Both the position numbers and the translations under genes were made by a program. 64,000 nucleotides of DNA from a bacterium (GTDB taxonomy: Bacteria; Patescibacteriota; Minisyncoccia; JAUYLV01): positions 6,824 through 70,823 of the forward strand of contig JAUSGO010000004.1 of NCBI GenBank assembly GCA_030649025.1. Reading direction: 5' to 3'. The first letter of the stretch is position 1. Each line of letters opens with the position of its first letter. The notes under the pieces were generated by a model. That model was not told where the DNA came from, did no database searches, and saw nothing but the letters and a program-made list of their open reading frames with translations. Positions 16,415-50,995 of the stretch are shown here, in pieces.

Positions 16415-16487
16415 GGGCGCATAGCTCAGCGATTAGAGCATCCGCCTTACACGCGGAGGGTCCTAGGTTTAAATCCTAGTGCGCCCA
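16415..16487 (+). tRNA. tRNA-Val (anticodon TAC)
   Basis: Manual fold: acceptor GGGCGCA/TGCGCCC, D-stem GCTC/GAGC, anticodon stem TCCGC/GCGGA with loop cTTACac, T-stem CCTAG/CTAGG. T-loop TTTAAAT is non-canonical. Confidence 0.75.
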
Positions 16488-16541
16488 CAATAAATTGTTC
16501 CATGTGAAACGTTAGTGTGTTTTTCTATGAAACAGGGCCAC

Positions 16542-16559
16542 ATGTTTCATGGGAAACAT
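16542..16559. promoter_or_regulatory. palindromic operator-like site ATGTTTC-atgg-GAAACAT immediately upstream of the yraN start
   Basis: Perfect inverted repeat. The same 16-mer form TGTTTCATGRGAAACA recurs at 16986-17001. Confidence 0.5.
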
Positions 16560-16568
16560 TTTTTAATC

Positions 16569-16976
16569 ATGGATAGCCGTACGGAAATAGGCAGATCAGG
16601 AGAAGGTGCCGCATCAAGTTTTCTTATCAACAATAATTACCGCATCATCCACAGAAACTTCCACCTAGGAAGAATGGGGGAAATAGACATAATAGCAGAA
16701 AAAAGTGTTGGATTTTGGCCATTTTTAGAGAAAAGTCTAGTTTTTGTAGAAGTAAAAACGCTTGTCATAGGAAGTTTTAAGAAGGAATATGATCCAGAAA
16801 TGCGCGTAGACGGCAAAAAACAAGAAAGACTTATAAGATTGGCCAGTCTATACCTCTCTAAAAACAAGATTAAGGCGGACACGCCGTGGCAAATTGATGT
16901 AATTGCTGTTGAAATAGAAAGTTCCACGGGAAACATAAAAGAGATTCGTCATCATGAAAACGCTGTTCATTTATAG
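16569..16976 (+). CDS. yraN: YraN-family (UPF0102) endonuclease
   Basis: MDSRTEIGRSGEGAASSFLINNNYRIIHRNFHLGRMGEIDIIAEK...FVEVKT...PWQIDVIAVE. The start was chosen at the internal Met; the track ORF begins at 16515. Confidence 0.7.
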   Translation: MDSRTEIGRSGEGAASSFLINNNYRIIHRNFHLGRMGEIDIIAEKSVGFWPFLEKSLVFVEVKTLVIGSFKKEYDPEMRVDGKKQERLIRLASLYLSKNKIKADTPWQIDVIAVEIESSTGNIKEIRHHENAVHL

Positions 16977-17009: not shown

Positions 17010-17043
17010 ATTCCACGTGAAACATTAATGTTTCACGTGGAAT
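17010..17043. repeat. 34-bp perfect palindrome ATTCCACGTGAAACATT|AATGTTTCACGTGGAAT
   Basis: Exact self-complementarity. It carries the same GAAACA/TGTTTC half-sites in the opposite arrangement. Confidence 0.8.
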
Positions 17044-17103: not shown

Positions 17104-17174
17104 GCGGGTATCGTATACCGGTATTATGCCACCTTGCCAAGGTGGAGAAACGGGTTCAATTCCCGTTACCCGCT
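17104..17174 (+). tRNA. tRNA-Gly (anticodon GCC), no encoded CCA
   Basis: Manual fold: acceptor GCGGGTA/TACCCGC, anticodon stem CCACC/GGTGG with loop ttGCCaa, T-stem ACGGG/CCCGT with loop TTCAATT. D-stem is weak (3 pairs) but the D-loop contains GG. Confidence 0.7.
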
Positions 17175-17292
17175 CACCAAAATAAAACTGCCCCTTGTGA
17201 GTAGTTTTATTTTGGTCGAACTTGGGGAATTAAAGGGAGGTCCGGTGGACTTCCCAGGTTTTTCTGAGCCGGAGGAACGAGGAGAGGAAAAG

Positions 17293-17310
17293 AATTCCCG
17301 TTACCTGCTT
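17293..17310. repeat. displaced copy of the tRNA-Gly 3' end (AATTCCCGTTACCtgc vs AATTCCCGTTACCcgc)
   Basis: 13-14-nt exact match to the T-loop/acceptor 3' half of the tRNA-Gly at 17104, about 120 nt downstream of it. Confidence 0.6.
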
Positions 17311-17397
17311 CAAGATGCGACTCAATATGTTCTATAAAATTGGTATTCGCGACGAAGTCCCGATCCGCCAGAGGCGGAGAGGGAAAAATCCTCTCAG

Positions 17398-17868
17398 TTG
17401 CGGCTTTTTCTGTTTACGGATGATGAGAAGTTTGAACCTTTTTATGTTATAATTACCAATATGAACGAGAATCCGGTATCAGTTGTTGTTTTTTACGATA
17501 TCAGTCACAAGCTGCTAATGCACAAAAGAAAGTCTTCTCCGGAAAAATGGGCCTTTATTGGTGGCGGCATCAAAACAAAGGAAGACCCCCTAGTAGCAGC
17601 GAAAAGAGAGGTTCAAGAAGAGCTAGGATACGAAGCAAAAAATTTACGTTTTTTTAGAAAATACGAAGTTTCTCGGGCTGGAGACATTAGCGCTGTTTAC
17701 GTTTACATTGCTCCATTTCCAGGATTCGACCAATTCCACCACACAAAAGAAGGAGACATTAGAAGTGACCTGCATTTAGTTACCATAGAACAAGCGAAAA
17801 CTTTGCCAAGCTTCCCGGTGGCCTATCAAATAATGGAAGACGTTGTAAATTTCTTGAATAGGGCATAG
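17398..17868 (+). CDS. NUDIX hydrolase
   Basis: Nudix box GGGIKTKEDPLVAAKREVQEELGY. Confidence 0.8.
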   Translation: MRLFLFTDDEKFEPFYVIITNMNENPVSVVVFYDISHKLLMHKRKSSPEKWAFIGGGIKTKEDPLVAAKREVQEELGYEAKNLRFFRKYEVSRAGDISAVYVYIAPFPGFDQFHHTKEGDIRSDLHLVTIEQAKTLPSFPVAYQIMEDVVNFLNRA

Positions 17869-17894
17869 CAATTTCCAATGCTGCTATTCCAATA

Positions 17895-17919
17895 GGTTCG
17901 AACAACGCATAACCCGTTC
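17895..17919. repeat. 25-bp direct repeat GGTTCGAACAACGCATAACCCGTTC (copy 1)
   Basis: Exact second copy at 18778-18802. The pair flanks the 18052-18630 gene and its promoter. Confidence 0.85.
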
Positions 17920-17971
17920 AAGTTGATCCAGTCGAAGTGTTTATGGGTGAGGAGAAATCTGATCGCAAGGA

Positions 17972-18000
17972 TCTGGACAGGAAAGTCAAAGTATGCTAAA
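17972..18000 (+). promoter_or_regulatory. promoter for the 18052 gene: -35 TGGACA, 17-nt spacer, extended -10 TGcTAAAAT
   Basis: Sequence match; followed by the SD ggaaggagg before the ATG at 18052. Confidence 0.5.
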
Positions 18001-18051
18001 ATGTCCTGTTCGTTCAAATTCAGGAAAACTTTCCGGAAGGAGGATGCATAA

Positions 18052-18630
18052 ATGGCTGGTTGGTCAGGAATTTACACAAATGATCAGGAGGTTGCCAGAA
18101 GCCTTATTCGGCAACTTACTGAAATGGGGTTGGTGATAGAAAGCAGAGCGTCAACTGACCCGAGCATCTCACTTTGGAAGAACGGGGTCTGGTTTTGGCT
18201 GGATCTGCCGGGTTACTTCCATCCTCTTTCCAAGAAACTGTTTGAGCTTGCGCGCGACATTATGCAGCCGAGGGAAAAACAAGAAGTATACATAAGCCCG
18301 AAAGACCTGCAAAGTCAAAACGCCGACAAGTCACAGGAGGGCGCGGGAGCCGTGCTGGTCTATCAGGCTGCCAACAACACTACTGAAAGCGGGTTCTACG
18401 TTGAGTTCGCCGACGGGGCGGAAACCGAGGCCCACTTCTTTGAGAACCCAGAGGATAAATGCAGTGATGGCTCAAATGAGATTGCCGCAGAATACTTCCT
18501 GAAACGCCACAATCTGGAAATTCACACGGACTTTCCCGATAACTGGAGAGTCGTAGAAGATTATGAACTGACAGAAAAAGCTCTACAAGAAGTGGAAAGA
18601 GAACATAGTTCTATACCAGCGGCGCGATAA
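18052..18630 (+). CDS. hypothetical protein (192 aa) with canonical promoter and SD, flanked by 25-bp direct repeats
   Basis: ORF with strong translation signals; no family recognised. Confidence 0.5.
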   Translation: MAGWSGIYTNDQEVARSLIRQLTEMGLVIESRASTDPSISLWKNGVWFWLDLPGYFHPLSKKLFELARDIMQPREKQEVYISPKDLQSQNADKSQEGAGAVLVYQAANNTTESGFYVEFADGAETEAHFFENPEDKCSDGSNEIAAEYFLKRHNLEIHTDFPDNWRVVEDYELTEKALQEVEREHSSIPAAR

Positions 18631-18777
18631 TCTCGCTCCGTTTTTTCTTTTCCAGCAGAAAAACTTGGCACCCCAAACCAGAGTTGTTATGGGCGACACG
18701 GTTGGGGGCAGTCACAAATCGTAATCGCTAAGACGATTTCTGGTTCATGGGCACAAACCACCCACGCCCACCACAGC

Positions 18778-18802
18778 GGTTCGAACAACGCATAACCCGT
18801 TC
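18778..18802. repeat. 25-bp direct repeat GGTTCGAACAACGCATAACCCGTTC (copy 2)
   Basis: Exact match to 17895-17919. Confidence 0.85.
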
Positions 18803-18833
18803 CAAAAGAAAAAGTCCCTTAGCGGGACTTAAA

Positions 18834-19229
18834 TTAATGAATTCGGACGGTTACCCTGAAAGATCTTGTCGGTGATTTTTGTTTTCCGAACGGCCGCCGA
18901 TACTCCAGCTCAACCACGCAAGAGTCTTTCTTCTTGGCTTTGAGCCTGAAAATCTCCACGGTCTTCATGTTGGGGTATCCCTGCTCCGGCTCCCGGAGAT
19001 TCTTGCCGACAAACTCCAGCAATCTCTTATCGTATTCGGCAAGTTGCCACGAGTAGCCGGTTCCCGGTTGACCTGGAAGTTCAATGACCAAAAAACTTCC
19101 TTTTGCCACCTCAACGGTCTTCCCGTTGTCGGCCTCCGTAACCAGCGCCGTTCCGGGCTCCGAAGCGATTGAAAAAGAGCAAATTGACAGCAAGGCGAGA
19201 AAAAGAACGGAAACAAAAAGTCTACTCAT
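18834..19229 (-). CDS. secreted chagasin-family (I42) cysteine-peptidase inhibitor
   Basis: Signal peptide MSRLFVSVLFLALLSICSFSIA, then ...GSFLVIELPGQPGTGYSWQL, which is chagasin/ICP-like. Start taken at the internal Met because the longer ORF runs into the repeat at 19322-19355. Confidence 0.65.
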   Translation of the reverse strand: MSRLFVSVLFLALLSICSFSIASEPGTALVTEADNGKTVEVAKGSFLVIELPGQPGTGYSWQLAEYDKRLLEFVGKNLREPEQGYPNMKTVEIFRLKAKKKDSCVVELEYRRPFGKQKSPTRSFRVTVRIH

Positions 19230-19321
19230 TGGGGCCTCCCTCCTGCGCAGAAAATTGAAGAACACCAGAAGAATATCATAAATATGTGGACATAGTCGAG
19301 CGCGAGAGCAAAAACGTTCAC

Positions 19322-19355
19322 ATGCCACCTTGCCAAGGTGGAGAAACGGGTTCAA
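19322..19355. repeat. 34-bp exact copy of the tRNA-Gly anticodon-arm-to-T-loop segment (ATGCCACCTTGCCAAGGTGGAGAAACGGGTTCAAT)
   Basis: Identical to 17128-17161 inside the tRNA-Gly. It ends exactly at the T-loop, where the fragment at 17293 begins. Confidence 0.85.
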
Positions 19356-19435
19356 TAAAATGTTCGTAGGCGACGACTGCTTGACTTTGAGATAAATCTT
19401 GCTAGGATAAGGATGACTTTACGGAGGCAAGAAAG

Positions 19436-19705
19436 ATGATACAACTGTTACTGCTTGGGCTCGGATCGTTTATTGTTGTAGCGCTGCTGGTTTTGGTCGG
19501 TCTGAAAATTGGATTGAAAATCGGGGGTTCTTTTTTGAACTTCCTCATGGTTTTTCTGCTCTTCGCGCTTAGTGTTGTTGGAACAGTCGCTCTTTACCAC
19601 CCACACATTCTGTACTTTCTTTACTTCCTTGCTTTTGTTCCGTCGCTTTTTGGAGCGGTCTTGGGCATCGGATGGAAGCTATTACGGGGACAATCCGCAC
19701 AATAA
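19436..19705 (+). CDS. small hydrophobic membrane protein (hypothetical)
   Basis: 89 aa, two predicted TM helices; SD ggagg 9 nt upstream; putative -35 TTGACT upstream. Confidence 0.5.
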   Translation: MIQLLLLGLGSFIVVALLVLVGLKIGLKIGGSFLNFLMVFLLFALSVVGTVALYHPHILYFLYFLAFVPSLFGAVLGIGWKLLRGQSAQ

Positions 19706-19712
19706 GATTTCA

Positions 19713-19745
19713 CGGTGGCAATTTTTGCCACCTTTCTTTTTGCGC
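19713..19745 (+). terminator. rho-independent terminator (ggtggcaatttttgccacc + tttcttttt)
   Basis: Perfect 6-bp stem followed by a T-run. Confidence 0.55.
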
Positions 19746-19810
19746 ACCTGCCAGCGCAAAGACGATTCAGAACGGCGCCCCCGCACGCCTTATCGATTTT
19801 TTACGCGCTT

Positions 19811-22800
19811 TTAGGACGGGTCCATCAAAGCGCGCAAGCGGCAGAATTCGCAGTCTTTTTCATCGCACCGCCGGTTCCAGAATTTCAAGTGCGTGATTTC
19901 ATCGGCAACGCGCTCAATGGTCTCTATCAACTCTTTTTTTTCTGCTTCGGTAATCTCAAACAGCTCTCGCCGATACTTACCCCGCTCATCCGGCTCCAGA
20001 AAATCAATAATGCCGGCTTTCATGTGATATGTTTTTTCGGGCTTCAAATCGAGAAGTAATTTGTAGAATACAAGTTGTCGCTTATATTGGCCACTCCGCT
20101 TGTCCCGGGTTTTGCCTTCTATCCAATTGCGGCTCTGGGGTTGTTTGGTTTTGTAGTCCACTACAGCCACGCTTCTTCCGTCGGCATCCAGCTCCAACTT
20201 ATCAAGGTTTCCGGTAAGTTTGATGTCTTTACCGAGCAACACTCCCGGTACCCTGAATTCGTTTATGGTCTGGGCGCTCCATGTCTCGTGCCAGGCATCA
20301 AAGTACCCTCCGAGCGACACGCCTCCTTTTTTTATAAGCGCCTCTTTGTCGCGTCTGCCAAGAGCCTTGTGGGCCATGTCTTGTCGGAATGCATCGAGTA
20401 AAAAATTCTTGTTCGTGTCCTTTCCCTGATTTCTTGCGTCAAAAAACATCTGCAAAGCTTTGTGCGCAGCAATGCCATATATTTGGAGCGATGTCGGGGA
20501 GGAGAACCAGCGCAGCAAATTCTGATAAAAAAATCGCCACGGACACGACAGATAGTTATTGAGCGCTGTCGCATTCAGTCCTCGCTTCCTGAAAATTTCC
20601 GAGAAATATTCTCTTCCGGGTGCCGCAAGTTCGTGCGGTGGAGCCATAAACGCCTCTCTTCTCTCCGAGAATGCTTTTTCAAACTCATCTCCGGCGTGCG
20701 CCTCGCGCAGATTCTCCCGTATTTCTTCTATGAATTGGCTCGGGACAAGCTCTCTGCCATCGGAAGAGGTCTGGCTATAAGTAATACACGAGACGCGTTT
20801 TGCTCGGGTAAGCGCCATGTAAAAAAGCCTTCGCTCGTCCTCGTTTTTCTCCATTTCTGAAACGTCCGACACCGTCCGGAACGGAAGTTCAAAATATTTG
20901 CGCGACCGCTTATTGCCCCAGTGGCCGTCCGATGCCCCGACAATGAACACCGCTTCAAATTCCAGTCCCTTGGCTTTGTGCGCGGTCATCAGGCGCACCG
21001 CCTCCTCAAGACGCGCGCCGCGTTCTCTGATCGTAGCTCCATGCGAGCGTAGCACCTCCAGATATTCCATGAGATCGCGCAATGCGGCGTCCTGGTGGTT
21101 TTCGGATATCTTTTTTACTTCATCAAAAAACGCGCCGACAGCTTCCATGTTTTTGGCATAATTGCCGTGTTTGAGTGCGTGCTCGAGAAATCCGGACTCA
21201 CGCATGAGCCTGGAGATGAATTTCGCAAGTTCCTCGTTCTCGCTCTGTTGTTTCCAGCGTGCCAATTTCTCGTACAAATCTTTGATTTTTGCCGGTTCGC
21301 GAACGCCAAGCATATCCAAATTCTCTGATCCAGAAACCAGCATCCAAAGCGATACGCGCTTCTCGTCATCCGTGGCGCGGATGAGTCGGTAGATATCCAT
21401 GGGGTCGAGTGCCAAAAAATCAATGTGTAGAATTCGTGCCAGCGCCTCGTCTTCTCCAAAGCGCCAGATCGCATTGCATAAGGCCACGAGTTTCATGATA
21501 AGGCGATTGGCCAGCACGTTTCGGTCCGACTCGATGACAAAAGGTATGTTTTGCGCGGCAAAAAAATCGGCGATGGGCAGCGCATCCCTATTCTCGCGAT
21601 ATAGTATCCCCATATTCTTCCAGGGAACGCCTTGGGAAAAGAGCTCCTTTACACGTCCGGCAAGAAAAAGAAGTTCTGCCTCCGGCAACGAGAACTTCCA
21701 GACCTGTACAAGATCCTTCCCCTTTTTTTCTGCCGCCTGAAGCGAGCCTCGCCTTAGAGGGCGGGCGGCTCGCAGGGGGAGCGACAGCACCGCTTTGTTC
21801 TTTTCTATGAGCGATTGCGCCGAATCCAGGATGGTCTGCGTAGAGCGGTAATTTTCTTCCAGTGAAATGAACTTTGCATCCGCGTATTTATTCTTAAAGT
21901 AAAGAAAATTGTCGAGCGATGCTCCCTGGAACCGGAAAATCGCCTGCTTTTCATCTCCCACCACAAAGAGGTTCGGGTTCGGATAGAAACTTGCCAAAAG
22001 CTCGAGCACTTTGTTCTGGGCACCGTTGGTATCCTGATGCTCGTCAACGAGGATATACTGATAACGTTCCTGCAGTTCTAGCAGAAAATTCTTGTCCGAC
22101 TCCATGGCCTTTATGGTTTCCAGGATCATGTCGTCGAAATCATACAACTTCCGCGTCCGCAGCACTTCCTGATACCGGACGTATATTTCGGAAAGCTCTT
22201 TGTTCCGGTTCAGCTTTTCCAGCCGTCTTTGTGCCGAACCCTTCATTTCATTCTTGTATTTCCCTTTGGTGTGGTGCAGATCGTCGCGCGACTCAAACTC
22301 CTCTTTCTCCCTTTTTACCAATTCGGCAAACGCGTCGAGACCGAATCCTTCTCGCTTGATGTCTTTGATGGCCTTGAGAATTTCCGGTACATAGTAGAAT
22401 TTCTCCGCGAACGGCCGGAGGTTCGTCCAAGAACCTTCTTCGATGATAGCGCGCAGGATGGCCATGGCATCGGCGGGCATGCAGTGTCTGCCGCCCATAA
22501 TAGCCGGATATTTTTCCGGATATTGCTGGATAAGCGCGTTGCAAAACCCATGGAACGTTCCGATGCGGACGTAATAGCCGCGGCTGCCGATAAGCGCAAC
22601 AAGCCTGCGGCGCATGTTCGCGGAAGCAGCTTCGGTGAAGGTGAGCGCCAGGATCGCTTCGGCGGGCGTGTCGGTGCGGGCTAAAATATTGGCAATGCGG
22701 AGCGTCAAGATCTGTGTTTTGCCAGTACCGGGTCCGGCGACAACCATGACGGGTCCTTCAATGTTTTCCACCGCCTCGCGTTGCCGGGGATTTAGTTTTT

Positions 22801-22870
22801 GCATCTCCGTTTCAAAGGGGGTCATGTTGTCGGATGTTACACCTCTCTCCATAGTAGTATAGAGCAGCAA
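19811..22870 (-). CDS. UvrD/PcrA-type SF1 helicase fused to a C-terminal Cas4/AddB-like PD-(D/E)xK nuclease with a 4-Cys Fe-S site
   Basis: N-terminal LNPRQREAV...VVAGPGTGKTQ (Walker A) and UvrD motifs. C-terminal CPWRFF first-Cys motif, VVDYKT nuclease core, terminal C-x4-C-x2-C (RRCDEKDCEFC). 1019 aa. Confidence 0.85.
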   Translation of the reverse strand: MLLYTTMERGVTSDNMTPFETEMQKLNPRQREAVENIEGPVMVVAGPGTGKTQILTLRIANILARTDTPAEAILALTFTEAASANMRRRLVALIGSRGYYVRIGTFHGFCNALIQQYPEKYPAIMGGRHCMPADAMAILRAIIEEGSWTNLRPFAEKFYYVPEILKAIKDIKREGFGLDAFAELVKREKEEFESRDDLHHTKGKYKNEMKGSAQRRLEKLNRNKELSEIYVRYQEVLRTRKLYDFDDMILETIKAMESDKNFLLELQERYQYILVDEHQDTNGAQNKVLELLASFYPNPNLFVVGDEKQAIFRFQGASLDNFLYFKNKYADAKFISLEENYRSTQTILDSAQSLIEKNKAVLSLPLRAARPLRRGSLQAAEKKGKDLVQVWKFSLPEAELLFLAGRVKELFSQGVPWKNMGILYRENRDALPIADFFAAQNIPFVIESDRNVLANRLIMKLVALCNAIWRFGEDEALARILHIDFLALDPMDIYRLIRATDDEKRVSLWMLVSGSENLDMLGVREPAKIKDLYEKLARWKQQSENEELAKFISRLMRESGFLEHALKHGNYAKNMEAVGAFFDEVKKISENHQDAALRDLMEYLEVLRSHGATIRERGARLEEAVRLMTAHKAKGLEFEAVFIVGASDGHWGNKRSRKYFELPFRTVSDVSEMEKNEDERRLFYMALTRAKRVSCITYSQTSSDGRELVPSQFIEEIRENLREAHAGDEFEKAFSERREAFMAPPHELAAPGREYFSEIFRKRGLNATALNNYLSCPWRFFYQNLLRWFSSPTSLQIYGIAAHKALQMFFDARNQGKDTNKNFLLDAFRQDMAHKALGRRDKEALIKKGGVSLGGYFDAWHETWSAQTINEFRVPGVLLGKDIKLTGNLDKLELDADGRSVAVVDYKTKQPQSRNWIEGKTRDKRSGQYKRQLVFYKLLLDLKPEKTYHMKAGIIDFLEPDERGKYRRELFEITEAEKKELIETIERVADEITHLKFWNRRCDEKDCEFCRLRALMDPS

Positions 22871-22910
22871 AAAGAAAAATACGCTGCAATTTGTGCAACG
22901 TATGTTCGAG

Positions 22911-24191
22911 TTAAGACGGCTTCACGATAACCGTTACGAATTTTTCTGGTTTCAGCGTTTGCGCGCGAAGCGCCTCGACCTCTTCAAGAGTGATAGAAGA
23001 GATAATTTTGCGTTGTCGCGGGAAGTAGCGCTCCAAACTTTTGAGCGGCCAGTGTTTTTGTGCTGTGCCAAGAATATGTCCTGACCAGTCTTCCAGTTTC
23101 TCCGGCGTGAGCATATGCAGGTCGTCAAGCGACTCCTGTACTTCCTCGAAAGTGCTTTGATCTTGCAGGGGCGTAAAGACCGAGCTCTCAATAAGTTCCC
23201 GGACCGTATCAATGCGCGAAGAGAGGGTTTCCACATAGGCCGCGAAATAGTAGCCAAGCGGATGGGCGCCCGATATTCCGCCCCATAACGCATATGCAAA
23301 ACCTCTTTTCTCTCGCACCTCGTTCCATAACCGCGACGTCTGGCCGCTCACCAAAAGCCGCATCAAGAACGTTGACATCTGACGCGTCCGCTCGTTCTTG
23401 AAGATGGGAAACTTGCAACCAAAAAGCAGGGTTGCCTTTTCGCTTTTAGGCCGCTCAATAACAACCTCCTGCTTTTCGGGCAGCACTCCGTACTCGTCGT
23501 TCCATGCATTGTGCAGCACGTGCCCGCGTGGCAGAGCAAGGTGTTTTTCCAGTAGCGAGAGGACCTGGTCGTGGCGGACGTCCCCGATGGCAAGCGCGAT
23601 GGTGTTTTTCGGGACAAACCACTTCGCCTTCTCGCGCAGAAGATCTTCCCTGGTAACATTCTGGACTCCTGAGGGCGAGCCTACGCCATGAATGCGCAGA
23701 GGATTTTCCCGCCAGAGCTCCTTCCAGAGCGCAATGTAGGCGAGGTAGTTGTCTTCGTCGTGGTCGCGCGCTATCTCATTGAGCACGACCTCTTTTTCTC
23801 TTTCAACCTCTTCGACGGGGAATCGGGAGTTGCAGTAGATATCGCACATCAGATCACACAAGAGCGGAAATTTTCTTGCGATCGCTTCTCCCTCAAATCC
23901 TATCTCAATGTGCCCGGTATGGGCATTGCGCTCAAGTAAATTCCGTCGAATGAAGGAGTTAATATCCGCAATGCTTCTTCTGGCAGTTCCTTTGAACGCC
24001 ATATGTTCAAAATAATGGAAAAGCCCTTTTTTGCCGGGTGGGTCATAAGCAGACCCTACTCCCGCGACCAGTTCTAGATGCGTTTTTTTTGAAGGAACGC
24101 GGCAGGAGATGATGCGCAGGCCGTCATCACGAACCGTTTCTTGGATTTTCATGAACCACCCCCGTATGCTTGCCAGCCCAGTATGGACCAT
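22911..24191 (-). CDS. M16-family (pitrilysin/insulinase-like) zinc peptidase
   Basis: Inverted zinc motif HYFEHMAFKGT (HxxEH). The start may be the internal MKIQETV. Confidence 0.8.
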   Translation of the reverse strand: MVHTGLASIRGWFMKIQETVRDDGLRIISCRVPSKKTHLELVAGVGSAYDPPGKKGLFHYFEHMAFKGTARRSIADINSFIRRNLLERNAHTGHIEIGFEGEAIARKFPLLCDLMCDIYCNSRFPVEEVEREKEVVLNEIARDHDEDNYLAYIALWKELWRENPLRIHGVGSPSGVQNVTREDLLREKAKWFVPKNTIALAIGDVRHDQVLSLLEKHLALPRGHVLHNAWNDEYGVLPEKQEVVIERPKSEKATLLFGCKFPIFKNERTRQMSTFLMRLLVSGQTSRLWNEVREKRGFAYALWGGISGAHPLGYYFAAYVETLSSRIDTVRELIESSVFTPLQDQSTFEEVQESLDDLHMLTPEKLEDWSGHILGTAQKHWPLKSLERYFPRQRKIISSITLEEVEALRAQTLKPEKFVTVIVKPS

Positions 24192-24252
24192 AAAATCTCA
24201 TTGTCAATCATTCATTCTTGTTCAAAATTCTCTTACTGGGTATACTCAAACA

Positions 24253-25575
24253 GTGAAATTGGATAAAAACTTTTTAAAAGATACGCTTATATCGTCGAGG
24301 GGCATTCTTGTCGGCACAACATTCGCAAGTTATGTTCTCGGTCTTCTGCGCGACCGGCTTTTTGCGCATACCTTTGGCGCGGGACAGGAGTTGGACGCTT
24401 ACCAGGCGGCTTTTTTACTTCCGGATTTTCTTTTGAATTTTTTGATCGCCGGGGGGCTTGCTGCGGCGTTTGTGCCGCTCTTTCTTGAAGCGAAATCAAA
24501 AGATCCGAAACAGGCTATACTGTTTGCCAGAACAATAACCACGATCTCCGCGCTTTTAATGCTTGGGGTTGGCGCGCTGCTTTTCATCTTTGCGCCCTAT
24601 CTTGCGACACTCGTTGCTCCCGGGTTCGGCGCAGAAAACCATATACTTCTGGTGCGTCTCGTGCGCGTGCTTGCGTTTTCTCCCACGATATTTGCGGCGT
24701 CAAACGCCTTGGGCGGCATTCTTGTCGCCGAAAATCGATTTCTCACCTATGGACTTGCACCGGTGTTCTATAACGCGGGCATTATCGTAGGAACATTCTT
24801 TCTCGCGCCCCATTTTGGTATTTTGGGCGTTGCATACGGCACCATAGGCGGCGCCCTACTGCATCTTGCCGTTCGACTTTTGGAACTTAAAACATTGCGC
24901 TTTCCCATCCGCCCCGCGTTCCACATGAAACTTCCCCAATTCATTCCGTTTTTACGCCTGTCCCTTCCTAAAATGTTCGGTCACCCTGTGGAGATGGCAA
25001 CATTTTGGGGATTTACCGCGCTTGCCTCGACTCTGCCAAGCGGCAGTATCGCAATATTGAACTTCGCGAGAAATTTTCAAAGCGTTCCCATAAGCCTTAT
25101 CGGTATCTCGTTTGCGACGGTGTCGTTTTCGCTTCTTGCCAAGGCCCACGCCGAGAAAGACCGCGATCGATTCAATGCCGAGCTTAATCGTACGATGCGG
25201 CATATCGTGATGTTGAGCGTGCTTGCGGCACTAGGCATGTTTTTTTTCCGAAACCTCATTATCTCGCTTCTCATCGGCGGGGGATCGTTTGACGAGCATG
25301 CAGTGCGTGAAACTGCGCTGCTGCTTGGCGCGTTCACCCTCTCGATTCCCTTTGAAGCCGTAAGCCATCTGCAGGCGCGCGCGTTTTATGCGGCGAAAAA
25401 TACACTTTTACCTGTTTTGGCGGGCGCATTCAATCTCATAATCTCCGTTTTTTGCGCATGGATGCTTATTGGTACATTCGGGCTTTTGGCCCTTCCGCTT
25501 GGGTATGCGATAGGAACCCTTGCAAAAGTCATTGTCCTTGGCATTCTTTTGCCAAGACAACTTAAGAATATTTAA
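24253..25575 (+). CDS. murJ: lipid II flippase MurJ (MviN family)
   Basis: Multi-TM protein with a typical MurJ N-terminus SRGILVGTTFASYVLGLLRDRLFAHTFGAG. Start placed at the GTG, since the longer track ORF overlaps the divergent M16 gene. Confidence 0.8.
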   Translation: MKLDKNFLKDTLISSRGILVGTTFASYVLGLLRDRLFAHTFGAGQELDAYQAAFLLPDFLLNFLIAGGLAAAFVPLFLEAKSKDPKQAILFARTITTISALLMLGVGALLFIFAPYLATLVAPGFGAENHILLVRLVRVLAFSPTIFAASNALGGILVAENRFLTYGLAPVFYNAGIIVGTFFLAPHFGILGVAYGTIGGALLHLAVRLLELKTLRFPIRPAFHMKLPQFIPFLRLSLPKMFGHPVEMATFWGFTALASTLPSGSIAILNFARNFQSVPISLIGISFATVSFSLLAKAHAEKDRDRFNAELNRTMRHIVMLSVLAALGMFFFRNLIISLLIGGGSFDEHAVRETALLLGAFTLSIPFEAVSHLQARAFYAAKNTLLPVLAGAFNLIISVFCAWMLIGTFGLLALPLGYAIGTLAKVIVLGILLPRQLKNI

Positions 25576-25655
25576 ATTTTTTTCTCGGATTTTGAGCGCA
25601 GAATTTGTCAGCAATAAAACCCGGCCATTGGTGATGGTCGGGCGTTTAGTACACC

Positions 25656-26759
25656 TCAGAATTGTGTGATGATGAGCACCCAGTCGTTCACGTACTCGTC
25701 ACGCAGTGTTCCGTTGGCGTCCTTTGTGGCACGGATAGCAAACACCTTCCAGGTGTTCTTAATGTGTTCCATGAGTAGGCGGTTGAATGTTTCGTCTCCC
25801 GGACTTGAGAAGATGTGCGTGTCTTCAATGTTGCCGCCCAGTGAGACCTTCAGAGCAAAATACATCGTTTTCCCTCGAAATTTTCGAATAGCTCTGTTTA
25901 GCTCCCGGTTTTGTGTATCGGCCGGAGGATCAGGACGGCTGAAAACAAAAGCTCTTGTGTCGCTTCTGCCTCTTCCGAAACCCGCGCCGATGCCGCCGCC
26001 CTCTCCACCGCCCGTCCCGCCGCCGCTGCCGGGGCCGTAACCGCCGCCGCTGCCGGGGCCTATGCCCGTCCCAGTGCCCGCGCCGATACCACCCGCAGAT
26101 CCCTCGCCATCGGAAGTGGGATTGGGTATGGGGGCCATGGCATCTCCCACAGTATCGGGAAGTGCGGGAATGGGAATTTGTGATGCGTCAATTGAGCCCT
26201 GCAAAGAAGGAGGTTCGGGAATATCCGGATCTATATTCGGCGATGCAACGGAAGGCACGACAATCTGCGCCCGCTTAATGTCGGGAAGTTTTCCGGCAGA
26301 GGGCGGCTTGGGAGAATTTTTCCCTCCGCCTCCGCCGCCTCCGCCAATATCCGTCGAATCCATTTTTGGCATGTAAAGCAGGATGTACGGCGGACGGGTT
26401 TCGGCAACCATCGGTCTTTTTTGGGTCTTGCGGCCCATGAGCATCGCCAAGAGCACGACAATGGTTATGGTCATCGGATAGACCAAGCAAGTCGTTGCAA
26501 GCTGCGCTACCCATCTGTGACGGTTTTCTTTTTCTACCTGGACGACAAGATTTGTCGTCGGTTCGCAAATGCCCAGCGTGATAATGCAGGTGTTTCGATG
26601 TATATTCGTGTTTTCAAGTAGCCGCTCGACACTTCTCAAGGAAGCACGATCGGCTAAGTTTCGCATTATTTTGAGAAACACCGATGCGCCCTCCTTGTGA
26701 GATTGATGTGGATGTCGCATATCGTAGCACCATAACCGGCTATTGACAAGTTTTTCCAT
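25656..26759 (-). CDS. membrane-anchored Gly/Pro-rich protein with a TonB-C-like C-terminal domain (hypothetical)
   Basis: TM segment LVYPMTITIVVLLAMLMG, poly-Gly and Pro-rich low-complexity tracts, and a C-terminal ~90 aa loosely TonB-C-like. Start uncertain. Confidence 0.45.
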   Translation of the reverse strand: MEKLVNSRLWCYDMRHPHQSHKEGASVFLKIMRNLADRASLRSVERLLENTNIHRNTCIITLGICEPTTNLVVQVEKENRHRWVAQLATTCLVYPMTITIVVLLAMLMGRKTQKRPMVAETRPPYILLYMPKMDSTDIGGGGGGGGKNSPKPPSAGKLPDIKRAQIVVPSVASPNIDPDIPEPPSLQGSIDASQIPIPALPDTVGDAMAPIPNPTSDGEGSAGGIGAGTGTGIGPGSGGGYGPGSGGGTGGGEGGGIGAGFGRGRSDTRAFVFSRPDPPADTQNRELNRAIRKFRGKTMYFALKVSLGGNIEDTHIFSSPGDETFNRLLMEHIKNTWKVFAIRATKDANGTLRDEYVNDWVLIITQF

Positions 26760-26821
26760 ATAGCTATACTAGAAGGGTACAAGCCGCCTTAATAAAGGGT
26801 GGTTTTTTGATTAAGAAATTT

Positions 26822-26930
26822 AAAAATCAAAGATCAAAAATCAAAATTAAGGAGTGAAAATTTTTCTTCAAAAAACTTTCACGATACTCCAAAATTTTGC
26901 ATTTTGAGATTTGCATTTTGAATTTTACTA
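26822..26930. repeat. ~110-nt intergenic repeat element, copy A (before nusA)
   Basis: About 85% identical to 50869-50995. Contains ATCAAAA tandems, AAGGAG, a hairpin GTGAAA..TTTCAC and TTTTGCATTTTGAG x2. Confidence 0.85.
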
Positions 26931-50494: not shown

Positions 50495-50872
50495 TTGAGG
50501 AAGAATCGTGCAAAACACAATATACTCATGCGTACGCGCAGGCATGGGCGCATTCGCGGCAAAATACAGGGGACCGCGGATCGGCCAAGGCTCTCCGTGT
50601 TCCGTTCCGCAAAACATCTCGCCCTTCAACTTATAGATGATGAGGCTCAAAGAACGATTGTTGGGATTACCGACGAGAAGAAAACTAAAAAAATAAACAA
50701 GGGCTCTGGGGCGGCAAAAGTTGAAAAGGCGAGGGCGGCCGGCAAAGTGCTGGCGGAAAAGGCTTTGGCAAAGGGGATTAAAAAAGTGGTATTTGATAGA
50801 GGCGGTTATGCGTATCATGGAAGGGTTCGGGCGGTTGCGGAGGGCGCAAGAGAAGGAGGACTTCAGTTTTGA
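50495..50872 (+). CDS. rplR: 50S ribosomal protein L18
   Basis: L18 consensus; 125 aa. Confidence 0.93.
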
Positions 50873-50995
50873 AAATCAAAAGTCAAAAATCAAAAGTCAA
50901 AAATCAAAATTAAGGAGCGAAAGTTTCTCTTGCAAGAAAAACTTTCACGATATTCCCAAGTTTTGCATTTTGAGTTTTGCATTTTGAATTTGTAA
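50869..50995. repeat. ~125-nt intergenic repeat element, copy B (between rplR and rpsE)
   Basis: About 85% identical to 26822-26930; starts at the rplR stop and ends at the rpsE ATG. Confidence 0.85.

Follow-up and report, generated by a model that had tools for sequence, protein, structure and literature searches.

Permuted fragments of tRNA-Gly(GCC) beside the intact gene in a Patescibacteria genome, possible scars of recombination at a serine-integrase hot spot

How did two displaced pieces of a tRNA gene come to lie downstream of an intact copy of that gene? The question is raised by contig JAUSGO010000004.1 from a metagenome-assembled genome (MAG) of the Patescibacteria (candidate phyla radiation, CPR), of which a stretch of 64 kb, referred to here as the window, was analyzed. 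In the window, an intact tRNA-Gly(GCC) gene is followed by a 117-bp spacer, a short piece of the tRNA (fragment A), a 2.06-kb stretch encoding a NUDIX hydrolase, an ORFan protein, and a chagasin-family (I42) peptidase inhibitor, and a second, longer piece of the same tRNA (fragment B). The initial annotation of the window, made from the sequence alone, regarded the pieces as scars of site-specific recombination at the tRNA T-loop that delimit a single accessory segment of ∼2.2 kb. The first part of this proposal was supported, and was strengthened by an integrase found in relatives; we assign a probability of about 0.5 to the reading that A and B are attachment (att) site scars left when DNA recombined site-specifically at a hot spot for serine integrases. 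The fragments are real, but that they delimit one segment is plausible and unproven.

Results

Two displaced tRNA pieces may form one site in permuted order

By the Islander definition, islands in tRNA or transfer-messenger RNA (tmRNA) genes comprise a regenerated tRNA gene, a displaced 3′ fragment in direct orientation, an integrase, and a break in synteny (PMC4383910). An intact target tRNA was present at one boundary of the segment, as had been noted initially, with tRNA-Gly(GCC) called at 17104 to 17175 by ARAGORN and at 17104 to 17174 by Rfam (58.5 bits). Fragment A reproduced 17158 to 17174 at 16 of 17 positions (AATTCCCGTTACCTGCT versus ...CCCGCT), with a single C-to-T change in the acceptor stem, and extended from the T-loop AAT (of TTCAATT) to the discriminator base. 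A match of this type (a 17-mer with one mismatch) is expected ∼4e-4 times in the window. The piece had been annotated as a 14-nt copy of the T-loop and 3′ end; its existence was confirmed and its length corrected to 17 nt, including the C-to-T change. Its start at tRNA position 55, midway through the T-loop, parallels that of the displaced copies left by the ssrA-specific islands of Dehalococcoides, for which the serine recombinase DsiB was described and crossover was inferred to occur mid T-loop in tmRNA genes (PMC3146451). Fragment A is followed by TCAAGA. Among the related contigs and loci compared (designated L002 to L034, except that L001 and L014 are Logan unitigs), CAAGA trails the native tRNA in L005, L011, L031, and L009, whereas CACCAA trails the intact tRNA of the window. 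Fragment A therefore derives from a tRNA-Gly 3′ end with a trailer of the type seen in the relatives and was not copied locally from the 3′ end now in place.

Fragment B was an exact copy (35/35) of 17126 to 17160, comprising the 3′ strand of the D-stem, the anticodon arm, the variable loop, and the 5′ strand of the T-stem up to the T-loop AAT. One nucleotide had been missed at its right edge in the initial annotation, which gave an exact 34-nt copy. The chance expectation for such a match is ∼1e-16, and none was found in shuffled sequence. Beyond the AAT the sequence is unrelated, with no tRNA 3′ end, and the fragment lies downstream of A. The last three nucleotides of B (AAT) are the first three of A, within the 7-nt T-loop, and B plus A reads as contiguous tRNA positions 23 to 71 (49 nt), in agreement with the initial proposal that joining the fragments recreates a contiguous 3′ part of the tRNA. 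The hypothetical join of B to A, that is, the circle or attP form, would read ...GAAACGGGTTCAAT followed by TCCCGTTACCTGCTTCAAGA, while the hypothetical join of the spacer to the right flank, representing the empty secondary site, would read ...GAGAGGAAAAGAAT followed by AAAATGTTCGTAGG. As arranged in the window (tRNA, spacer, A, 2.0 kb, B, right flank), the pieces are a circular permutation of B plus A.

Apart from the 35-nt pair and a 25-bp direct repeat described below, the 64 kb contained no long exact repeat, and any exact 25-mer pair would be expected 2e-6 times in the window, which completes the chance estimates called for by the initial annotation. When three mismatches were allowed, no further copies of A, B, or the 25-bp repeat were detected in the window, nor were any in shuffled sequence. 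The exact 35-mer occurred in 2 of 185,579 species genomes, in 7 metagenome contigs, and in no viral contig. All of these hits were intact tRNA-Gly genes, identical to that of the window over the tRNA sequence present on each contig. A role of fragment B as a regulatory tRNA-like RNA was rejected, with no fold signal (z = −0.14) and no conservation, and a 13-nt tRNA-like match in L010 was attributed to chance, being inside a coding sequence.

The sharpness of both edges of B, with no tRNA-like sequence on either side, would also be expected if B were a small stretch of the neighboring tRNA gene that was copied over in the course of break repair or template switching, its match with A then being fortuitous. 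We consider this origin unlikely. It is favored by the lack of any other B-type fragment in the collections searched and by A-rich motifs on the left (AAAACGTTCA) and right (AAAATGTTCG) of B that, by eye only, loosely resemble its 3′ end. However, no clear microhomology was apparent at the junctions, and the left edge at position 23 is reportedly a common start of the identity blocks in tRNA-targeting attP sites. Furthermore, the right edge falls in the T-loop exactly where A starts, at the same position as the crossover inferred for the serine-integrase islands in Dehalococcoides tmRNA genes (PMC3146451).

The junctions of B were also present in a second assembly. Among the Logan k=31 unitigs of SRR13727527, which is possibly the same sample as the MAG, L001 corresponded to 18029 to 19351 of the window and L014 to 19327 to 26917, with identical sequence; each ended after entering the 35-nt repeat by 30 nt, which is what a de Bruijn graph predicts. 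A contig misjoined at this repeat, or otherwise chimeric, is therefore very improbable as the source of the arrangement. The DNA does come from a metagenome assembly, and k=31 cannot phase a 35-nt repeat, for which the other phasing would be a 2,196-bp circle plus a truncated tRNA. Against this, reads and a typical final k (the contig names of a related MAG carry k141) far exceed 35 nt, making the phasing trivial; the reported phasing is the one that keeps the tRNA intact, and fragment A and the 25-bp repeats are too short for misjoins. L001 began at 18029, between the promoter-like site and the ribosome-binding site of the ORFan gene, with no evident repeat as the cause, and this start may reflect a population variant.

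The 3′ side of tRNA-Gly(GCC) is a hot spot in related genomes

A tRNA-Gly 100% identical to that of the window was found in L004, L005, L007 to L013, and L031. In L004, an 8-kb locus of the 20.6-kb contig CAYHEP010000015.1 from a MAG labeled Saccharibacteria, an intact large serine integrase of 539 amino acids was encoded antisense, directly 3′ of the identical tRNA-Gly (L004:4357 to 5976, minus strand), with the other end of its element falling outside the 8 kb. The protein contained Resolvase, Recombinase, and Zn_ribbon_recom domains, and it matched the integrase family phrog_95 in PHROG (1.4e-72) and the A118 and SPbeta large serine integrases in PDB. The 3′ end of the tRNA, as its reverse complement, supplies the final codons (..SG) and the TAA stop. 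The protein is a candidate serine integrase targeting the tRNA T-loop. In L031, the closest relative found (via a search with YraN, the product of the gene upstream of the tRNA-Gly), an 89-amino-acid C-terminal remnant of an L004-type integrase directly followed the identical tRNA, in the same position and frame and with its SG end and stop inside the tRNA (58% identity to the L004 integrase, E = 4e-31). The intact integrase and the remnant together indicate that tRNA-Gly is a target of serine-integrase elements in this lineage and that their decay in place can be seen directly.

YraN homologues stood beside tRNA-Gly(GCC) in five relatives, at 83% identity in L031, 79% in L032, 63% in L033, 57% in L012, and 54% in L034, and the order tRNA-Val, YraN, tRNA-Gly(GCC) was conserved in all five. 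The DNA between YraN and the tRNA was 67% identical between the window and L031 or L032. The 3′ end of the tRNA was exactly where homology with the relatives ceased, and every relative had a different right flank, which is the synteny interruption of the Islander definition in each of these loci. The right flank of L031 held the integrase remnant and a membrane protein gene, that of L032 a GIY-YIG nuclease gene (L032:1090 to 1365), and the other loci unrelated genes; none of the right-flank genes of the relatives occurred in the window, and none of the segment genes of the window occurred in those loci. Directly downstream of the identical tRNA-Gly in L010 (L010:6017 to 6498) were a HigB/RelE-like toxin gene (PF05015, E = 7e-7) and a weak ParD or ribbon-helix-helix-like antitoxin. 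With the GIY-YIG gene of L032, this shows that accessory or selfish genes recur at the tRNA-Gly site. The 3′ side of tRNA-Gly(GCC) is thus a hot spot in this Patescibacteria lineage, and at least some of its elements use a large serine integrase. The search for recombinases and related genomes suggested by the initial annotation was in this respect positive, with a conserved left flank and a hypervariable right flank.

The tRNA-Gly(GCC) in the slot next to YraN was discordant with the YraN phylogeny. Different alleles were found in L032:914 to 987 (YraN 79%), L033:2278 to 2352, and L034:6524 to 6597, compared with 17104 to 17175 of the window, while tRNA-Gly genes identical to that of the window were found in more distant genomes, including L012 (YraN 57%), L004, and L005. 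This pattern suggests whole-gene replacement or horizontal spread of a tRNA-Gly allele at the hot spot. The metagenome contigs L005, L008, and L009 broke inside or at the end of tRNA-Gly, as expected if an identical tRNA occupies several genomic contexts.

In viral contigs, no relatives of the L004 integrase were found, the T-arm/acceptor pattern matched only unrelated phage tRNA arrays with no free attP, and the segment proteins had merely distant, generic NUDIX hits. The helicase to the right of the segment was useless as a synteny anchor for an empty-site test; its relatives in L002 and L003 (66 to 67% identity) shared no neighbors with the window. The assignment of the organism to the Patescibacteria rests on homologues of this helicase.

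The spacer and the standing of fragment A

The 117-bp spacer between tRNA-Gly and fragment A contained two strong hairpins, and the region from 17176 to 17310 was predicted to fold with −50.7 kcal/mol (z = −3.7). It may be either the native terminator of the tRNA or the last remnant of an inserted element. When the window was searched by tblastn with the L004 integrase and with the remnant from L031, no integrase remnant was detected in the spacer. An antisense frame ending at the TAA within the tRNA stays open through the whole spacer and is similar to nothing. Local alignments of the tRNA trailers of the relatives with the spacer, the flank of A, the flanks of B, and the flanks of the 25-bp repeats gave nothing convincingly significant once multiple testing was allowed for; a match of 11 nt to L004 and a purine-rich likeness to L005 were dismissed as chance or low complexity.

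Fragment A on its own is placed and oriented as a displaced 3′ end canonically is, and it could be the only att scar. An integrase-bearing element would then have inserted in the T-loop and supplied both hairpins along with the 3′ end now present, before being deleted down to 117 bp, with NUDIX, the I42 inhibitor, and everything onward being native. B would stem from a different, older event, for example, an attR whose 3′ part was later deleted at the T-loop. This history is possible, and we give it well under an even chance. It accounts for the TCAAGA that follows A, this being the native trailer in the four relatives; decay of an element to a small remnant beside the tRNA is visible in L031; and the composition of the segment is not foreign. 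On the other hand, it needs more events, namely, two insertions, two internal deletions, and one deletion ending exactly at the T-loop. In L004 and L031 the 3′ end of the integrase abuts the tRNA, but the 117 bp hold no trace of it, the right flanks of the closest relatives have nothing in common with the segment, and the coincidence of the end of B with the starting nucleotides of A is left unexplained.

A model for the permuted fragments

Under the reading favored here, in which both fragments are att scars, we infer where crossover took place, which type of recombinase was active in this genome, and how many events occurred and in what order, as follows. An incoming element would itself carry a copy of the final ∼17 nt of the tRNA and so leave the gene intact, while the old 3′ end would be shifted downstream; fragment A, with its native-type CAAGA trailer, would be such a displaced end. 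Fragment B would be the matching left half of the site, and A and B would thus be reciprocal halves of one 49-nt site. Because these halves stand in permuted order, the simplest single event would be the entry of the 2.06-kb stretch, or its reentry after excision, as a circle with B plus A as its attachment site. The recombination partner of the circle would have been a secondary site that is not a tRNA, 117 bp downstream of tRNA-Gly, with only AAT as common sequence. Serine recombinases need only a matching central dinucleotide, whereas tyrosine integrases use a 6- to 8-bp overlap; since just 3 nt are common to both junctions, a serine recombinase fits better. Later, the ORFan gene would have inserted between NUDIX and its terminator, generating the 25-bp repeat, and loss of the recombinase gene would have left the region a fossil. 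The feature is probably immobile now. The circle at a secondary site, as one specific history, is proposed only tentatively.

In terms of the standard model, fragment A is a canonical displaced 3′ end and fragment B is a noncanonical piece that the model does not predict. Two routes may have led to the arrangement: (i) a single insertion of a circle at a secondary site and (ii) several canonical events combined with deletions. In route (ii), a first element would bring B...A′, and a second, integrase-bearing element would insert in the regenerated tRNA and decay to the 117-bp spacer, after which the 3′ part beside B would be lost through a further T-loop event. Route (i) has fewer steps. The CAAGA trailer and the unremarkable composition fit route (ii) or its simpler form, in which NUDIX and the genes onward are native.

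Several observations weigh against the att-scar reading. As the initial annotation had stated for the segment, there was no integrase, and this extended to the whole window: no recombinase domain was found by Pfam in the segment or in the ∼49 open reading frames (ORFs) tested from the window, and tblastn with the L004 integrase was negative. The window thus has neither an integrase inside the island, as in the Islander definition, nor an antisense serine recombinase of ∼540 amino acids beside the target, as in the ssrA type. The latter type also has a conserved motif on the element side (the P half-site) directly upstream of every displaced repeat; here a single A-type junction was available. 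No empty tRNA-Gly site, no second copy of the segment, and no B-plus-A (attP-like) junction were found in the collections searched, nor was a second B-type fragment found in the genome, metagenome, or viral collections scanned. Fragment A, read canonically, matches at 16/17 but encloses no more than the 117 bp that separate it from the tRNA, while the far boundary of the 2.2 kb is formed by B, which has no tRNA 3′ end and lies on the wrong side for an ordinary attR. The CAAGA trailer fits equally well with A as a displaced native 3′ end and NUDIX onward as native DNA. The secondary site has no likeness to the tRNA site beyond AAT, and its position 135 nt from the primary site is unexplained. 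The attP of large serine integrases normally carries no copy of attB, and identity over a block of 49 nt would more typically point to a tyrosine integrase. GC content and GC at third codon positions did not discriminate the segment as foreign: NUDIX was low in GC (0.41), but the core genes YraN and dnaN were equally low, and the other two segment genes were average. Finally, by a rough estimate, independent breakpoints of A and B would coincide within a few nucleotides in perhaps 10% of cases.

The arrangement itself may help to retain the segment. When the repeats of a canonical island recombine, the tRNA is restored, whereas here such recombination would remove the tRNA 3′ end. Deletion between the 35-nt repeats would join the 5′ part of the tRNA plus B to the right flank and lose the 3′ end, and segment loss by this path would therefore be counterselected.

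An ORFan unit between 25-bp repeats

The initial annotation also described an exact 25-bp direct repeat flanking a unit of promoter plus gene, and both copies (GGTTCGAACAACGCATAACCCGTTC) were found where it placed them. The edges were sharp, and the flanks were without similarity. The first copy lay 27 nt past the NUDIX stop and the second, within unitig L001, immediately ahead of the hairpin terminator that also serves the inhibitor gene. The unit of 883 bp between the repeats contained a promoter-like site (score 10/12, extended −10) and an ORF of 192 amino acids, designated hyp192. No homologues of hyp192 were found among 5.8e9 proteins in a word-indexed search or among 1.84e9 cluster representatives with full HMMER, and it had no Pfam, PHROG, or PADLOC hit. 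Its AlphaFold2 single-sequence model (mean predicted local distance difference test score of 34) was too poor for a structure search.

The 25-mer had no hits in viral contigs, and the repeat regions showed no significant fold (z = 0.39 and −1.5). By eye and folding, there was no support for a dif-like, tRNA-derived, or attC-like site. An integron-type cassette was likewise rejected, as the repeats had no significant fold, the gene had its own promoter-like site, and no integrase was found. Most simply, recombination via a 25-bp identical site would have placed the ORFan unit between NUDIX and its terminator, and the mechanism would be either site specific or of the Campbell type by short homology.

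Genes of the segment and its surroundings

The features of the locus are listed in Table 1. From the left, the gene order was AMP-binding enzyme, 201-amino-acid protein, tRNA-Val, YraN/UPF0102, tRNA-Gly, spacer, fragment A, followed by NUDIX, the first 25-bp repeat, the promoter-like site with the 192-amino-acid gene, the second repeat, the terminator, the I42 inhibitor (minus strand), and fragment B. To the right of B were a gene for an 89-amino-acid membrane protein and then a UvrD/PD-(D/E)XK helicase gene (minus strand). NUDIX matched the PADLOC candidate PDC-S07 (E = 5.7e-9). The I42 inhibitor, of 131 amino acids as called in the Logan contig, had a signal-peptide-like N terminus. All four proteins of the segment were singletons at 90% identity clustering. 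Exact-protein lookups returned only the same organism (Logan SRR13727527) for the genes of the window and nothing for YraN, the helicase (P0001), or NUDIX. In GenBank, proteins of this MAG are recorded as MDO8557705-08, with locus tags Q7S09_007xx.

Table 1. Coordinates of features at the tRNA-Gly(GCC) locus (positions in the window)
Feature	Position	Strand	Basis and remarks
tRNA-Val(UAC)	16415–16488	+	ARAGORN, Rfam; member of the conserved left flank
YraN/UPF0102 endonuclease gene	16515–16976	+	Pfam PF02021, E = 3.6e-20; conserved anchor of the left flank
Intact tRNA-Gly(GCC)	17104–17175	+	ARAGORN, Rfam; proposed attachment target (attL type, regenerated gene)
117-bp spacer (X)	17176–17292	+	Inverted repeat, terminator scan, fold; two strong hairpins (17176–17216; ∼17221–17268, T-run after the second)
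Fragment A, putative attR-type junction	17293–17309	+	tRNA positions 55–71 (mid T-loop to 3′ end), 16/17, then trailer TCAAGA
NUDIX hydrolase gene	17461–17868	+	Pfam PF00293, E = 1e-15; cargo or perhaps native flanking DNA
25-bp direct repeat, copy 1	17895–17919	+	Exact
Promoter-like site, ribosome-binding site, and ORFan gene hyp192	17974–18630	+	Promoter scan, ORF; promoter-like site 17974–18002, GGAGG, gene 18052–18630
25-bp direct repeat, copy 2	18778–18802	+	Exact
Terminator hairpin of the inhibitor gene, possibly bidirectional	18812–18830	−	Terminator scan, fold
Chagasin-family (I42) peptidase inhibitor gene	18834–19229	−	Pfam PF09394, E = 2.8e-16
Fragment B, putative orphan left half of attachment site	19322–19356	+	Exact 35-nt copy of tRNA positions 23–57
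89-amino-acid membrane protein gene	19436–19705	+	No Pfam hit; singleton at 90% identity clustering; first gene right of fragment B

The window as a whole represents core, origin-proximal chromosome, with rnpA, dnaA, dnaN, penicillin-binding protein, EF-G, S7, S12, EF-Tu, a ribosomal protein operon, SecY, and glycolysis genes. Around YraN and upstream of tRNA-Gly, a palindromic motif, TGTTTCAnnnGAAACA, occurred at five sites (16496, 16543, 16920, 16986, and 17029), the last of which sits within a perfect 34-bp palindrome (17010 to 17043). The motif was found nowhere else in the 64 kb (9 strand-matches versus 2.2 expected). As the same motifs also flank YraN in L031 and L032, the cluster is probably a conserved operator or regulatory site. 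Elsewhere in the window, an AT-rich repeat of 55 to 60 nt, 83 to 93% identical and with AAAATCAAAA periodicity, was present at 26816 to 26925, upstream of nusA, and at 50865 to 50991, in the ribosomal protein region. Its copies may represent a common promoter or leader element.

Discussion

The phenomenon described here belongs to a well-known class, the tRNA- and tmRNA-linked islands, of which the serine-integrase islands with mid-T-loop crossover are the closest precedent; the scrambled order of the pieces is unusual. In staphylococci, the serine-recombinase elements of the staphylococcal cassette chromosome group (SCCmec and pseudo-SCC) stack and decay at the 3′ end of the essential gene rlmH (orfX), leaving direct repeats and recombinase-less segments that can be moved only in trans. 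The present locus differs in target and host, and there was no sign here of mobilization in trans or of composite tandem elements. Like the islands of the Islander collection (PMC4383910), it has an intact regenerated tRNA, fragment A displaced downstream in direct orientation, and a synteny break exactly at the tRNA; unlike them, it has no integrase in the window, its canonical repeat bounds only 117 bp, and it contains the internal fragment B in permuted order. It shares with the ssrA islands of Dehalococcoides (PMC3146451) the geometry of the fragment A junction, a highly variable region downstream, and, in L004, a recombinase of ∼540 amino acids antisense beside the target 3′ end. It differs from them in that the target is tRNA-Gly rather than tmRNA, the host belongs to the Patescibacteria, and the window lacks the recombinase and the rest of the integration module.

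The feature in the window is probably a fossil, and it would imply no new mechanism unless the permuted fragments prove to belong to a mobilizable element. One such scenario, which we regard as a long shot, is that the 2.06-kb stretch is a recombinase-less mini-element with a 49-nt tRNA mimic (B plus A) as its site, moved in trans by a large serine integrase encoded elsewhere and able to insert at non-tRNA sites that share only the central dinucleotide. If so, the permuted tRNA pieces would lock the element in, as repeat-mediated loss would truncate tRNA-Gly(GCC), at a high cost if this is the sole copy, as we assume, and such elements would offer ORFan and accessory genes a route into the very small genomes of the Patescibacteria. 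The L004 integrase, with its tRNA T-loop target, may be of interest as a site-specific tool.

Genomes of the Patescibacteria are tiny, and the literature searched says little about their mobile elements. In the lineage studied here, serine-integrase elements appear to use one tRNA-Gly gene as a landing pad; they decay where they inserted, and accessory and ORFan genes stay behind. The locus and its relatives therefore provide a concrete, checkable site for studies of gene gain in the Patescibacteria.

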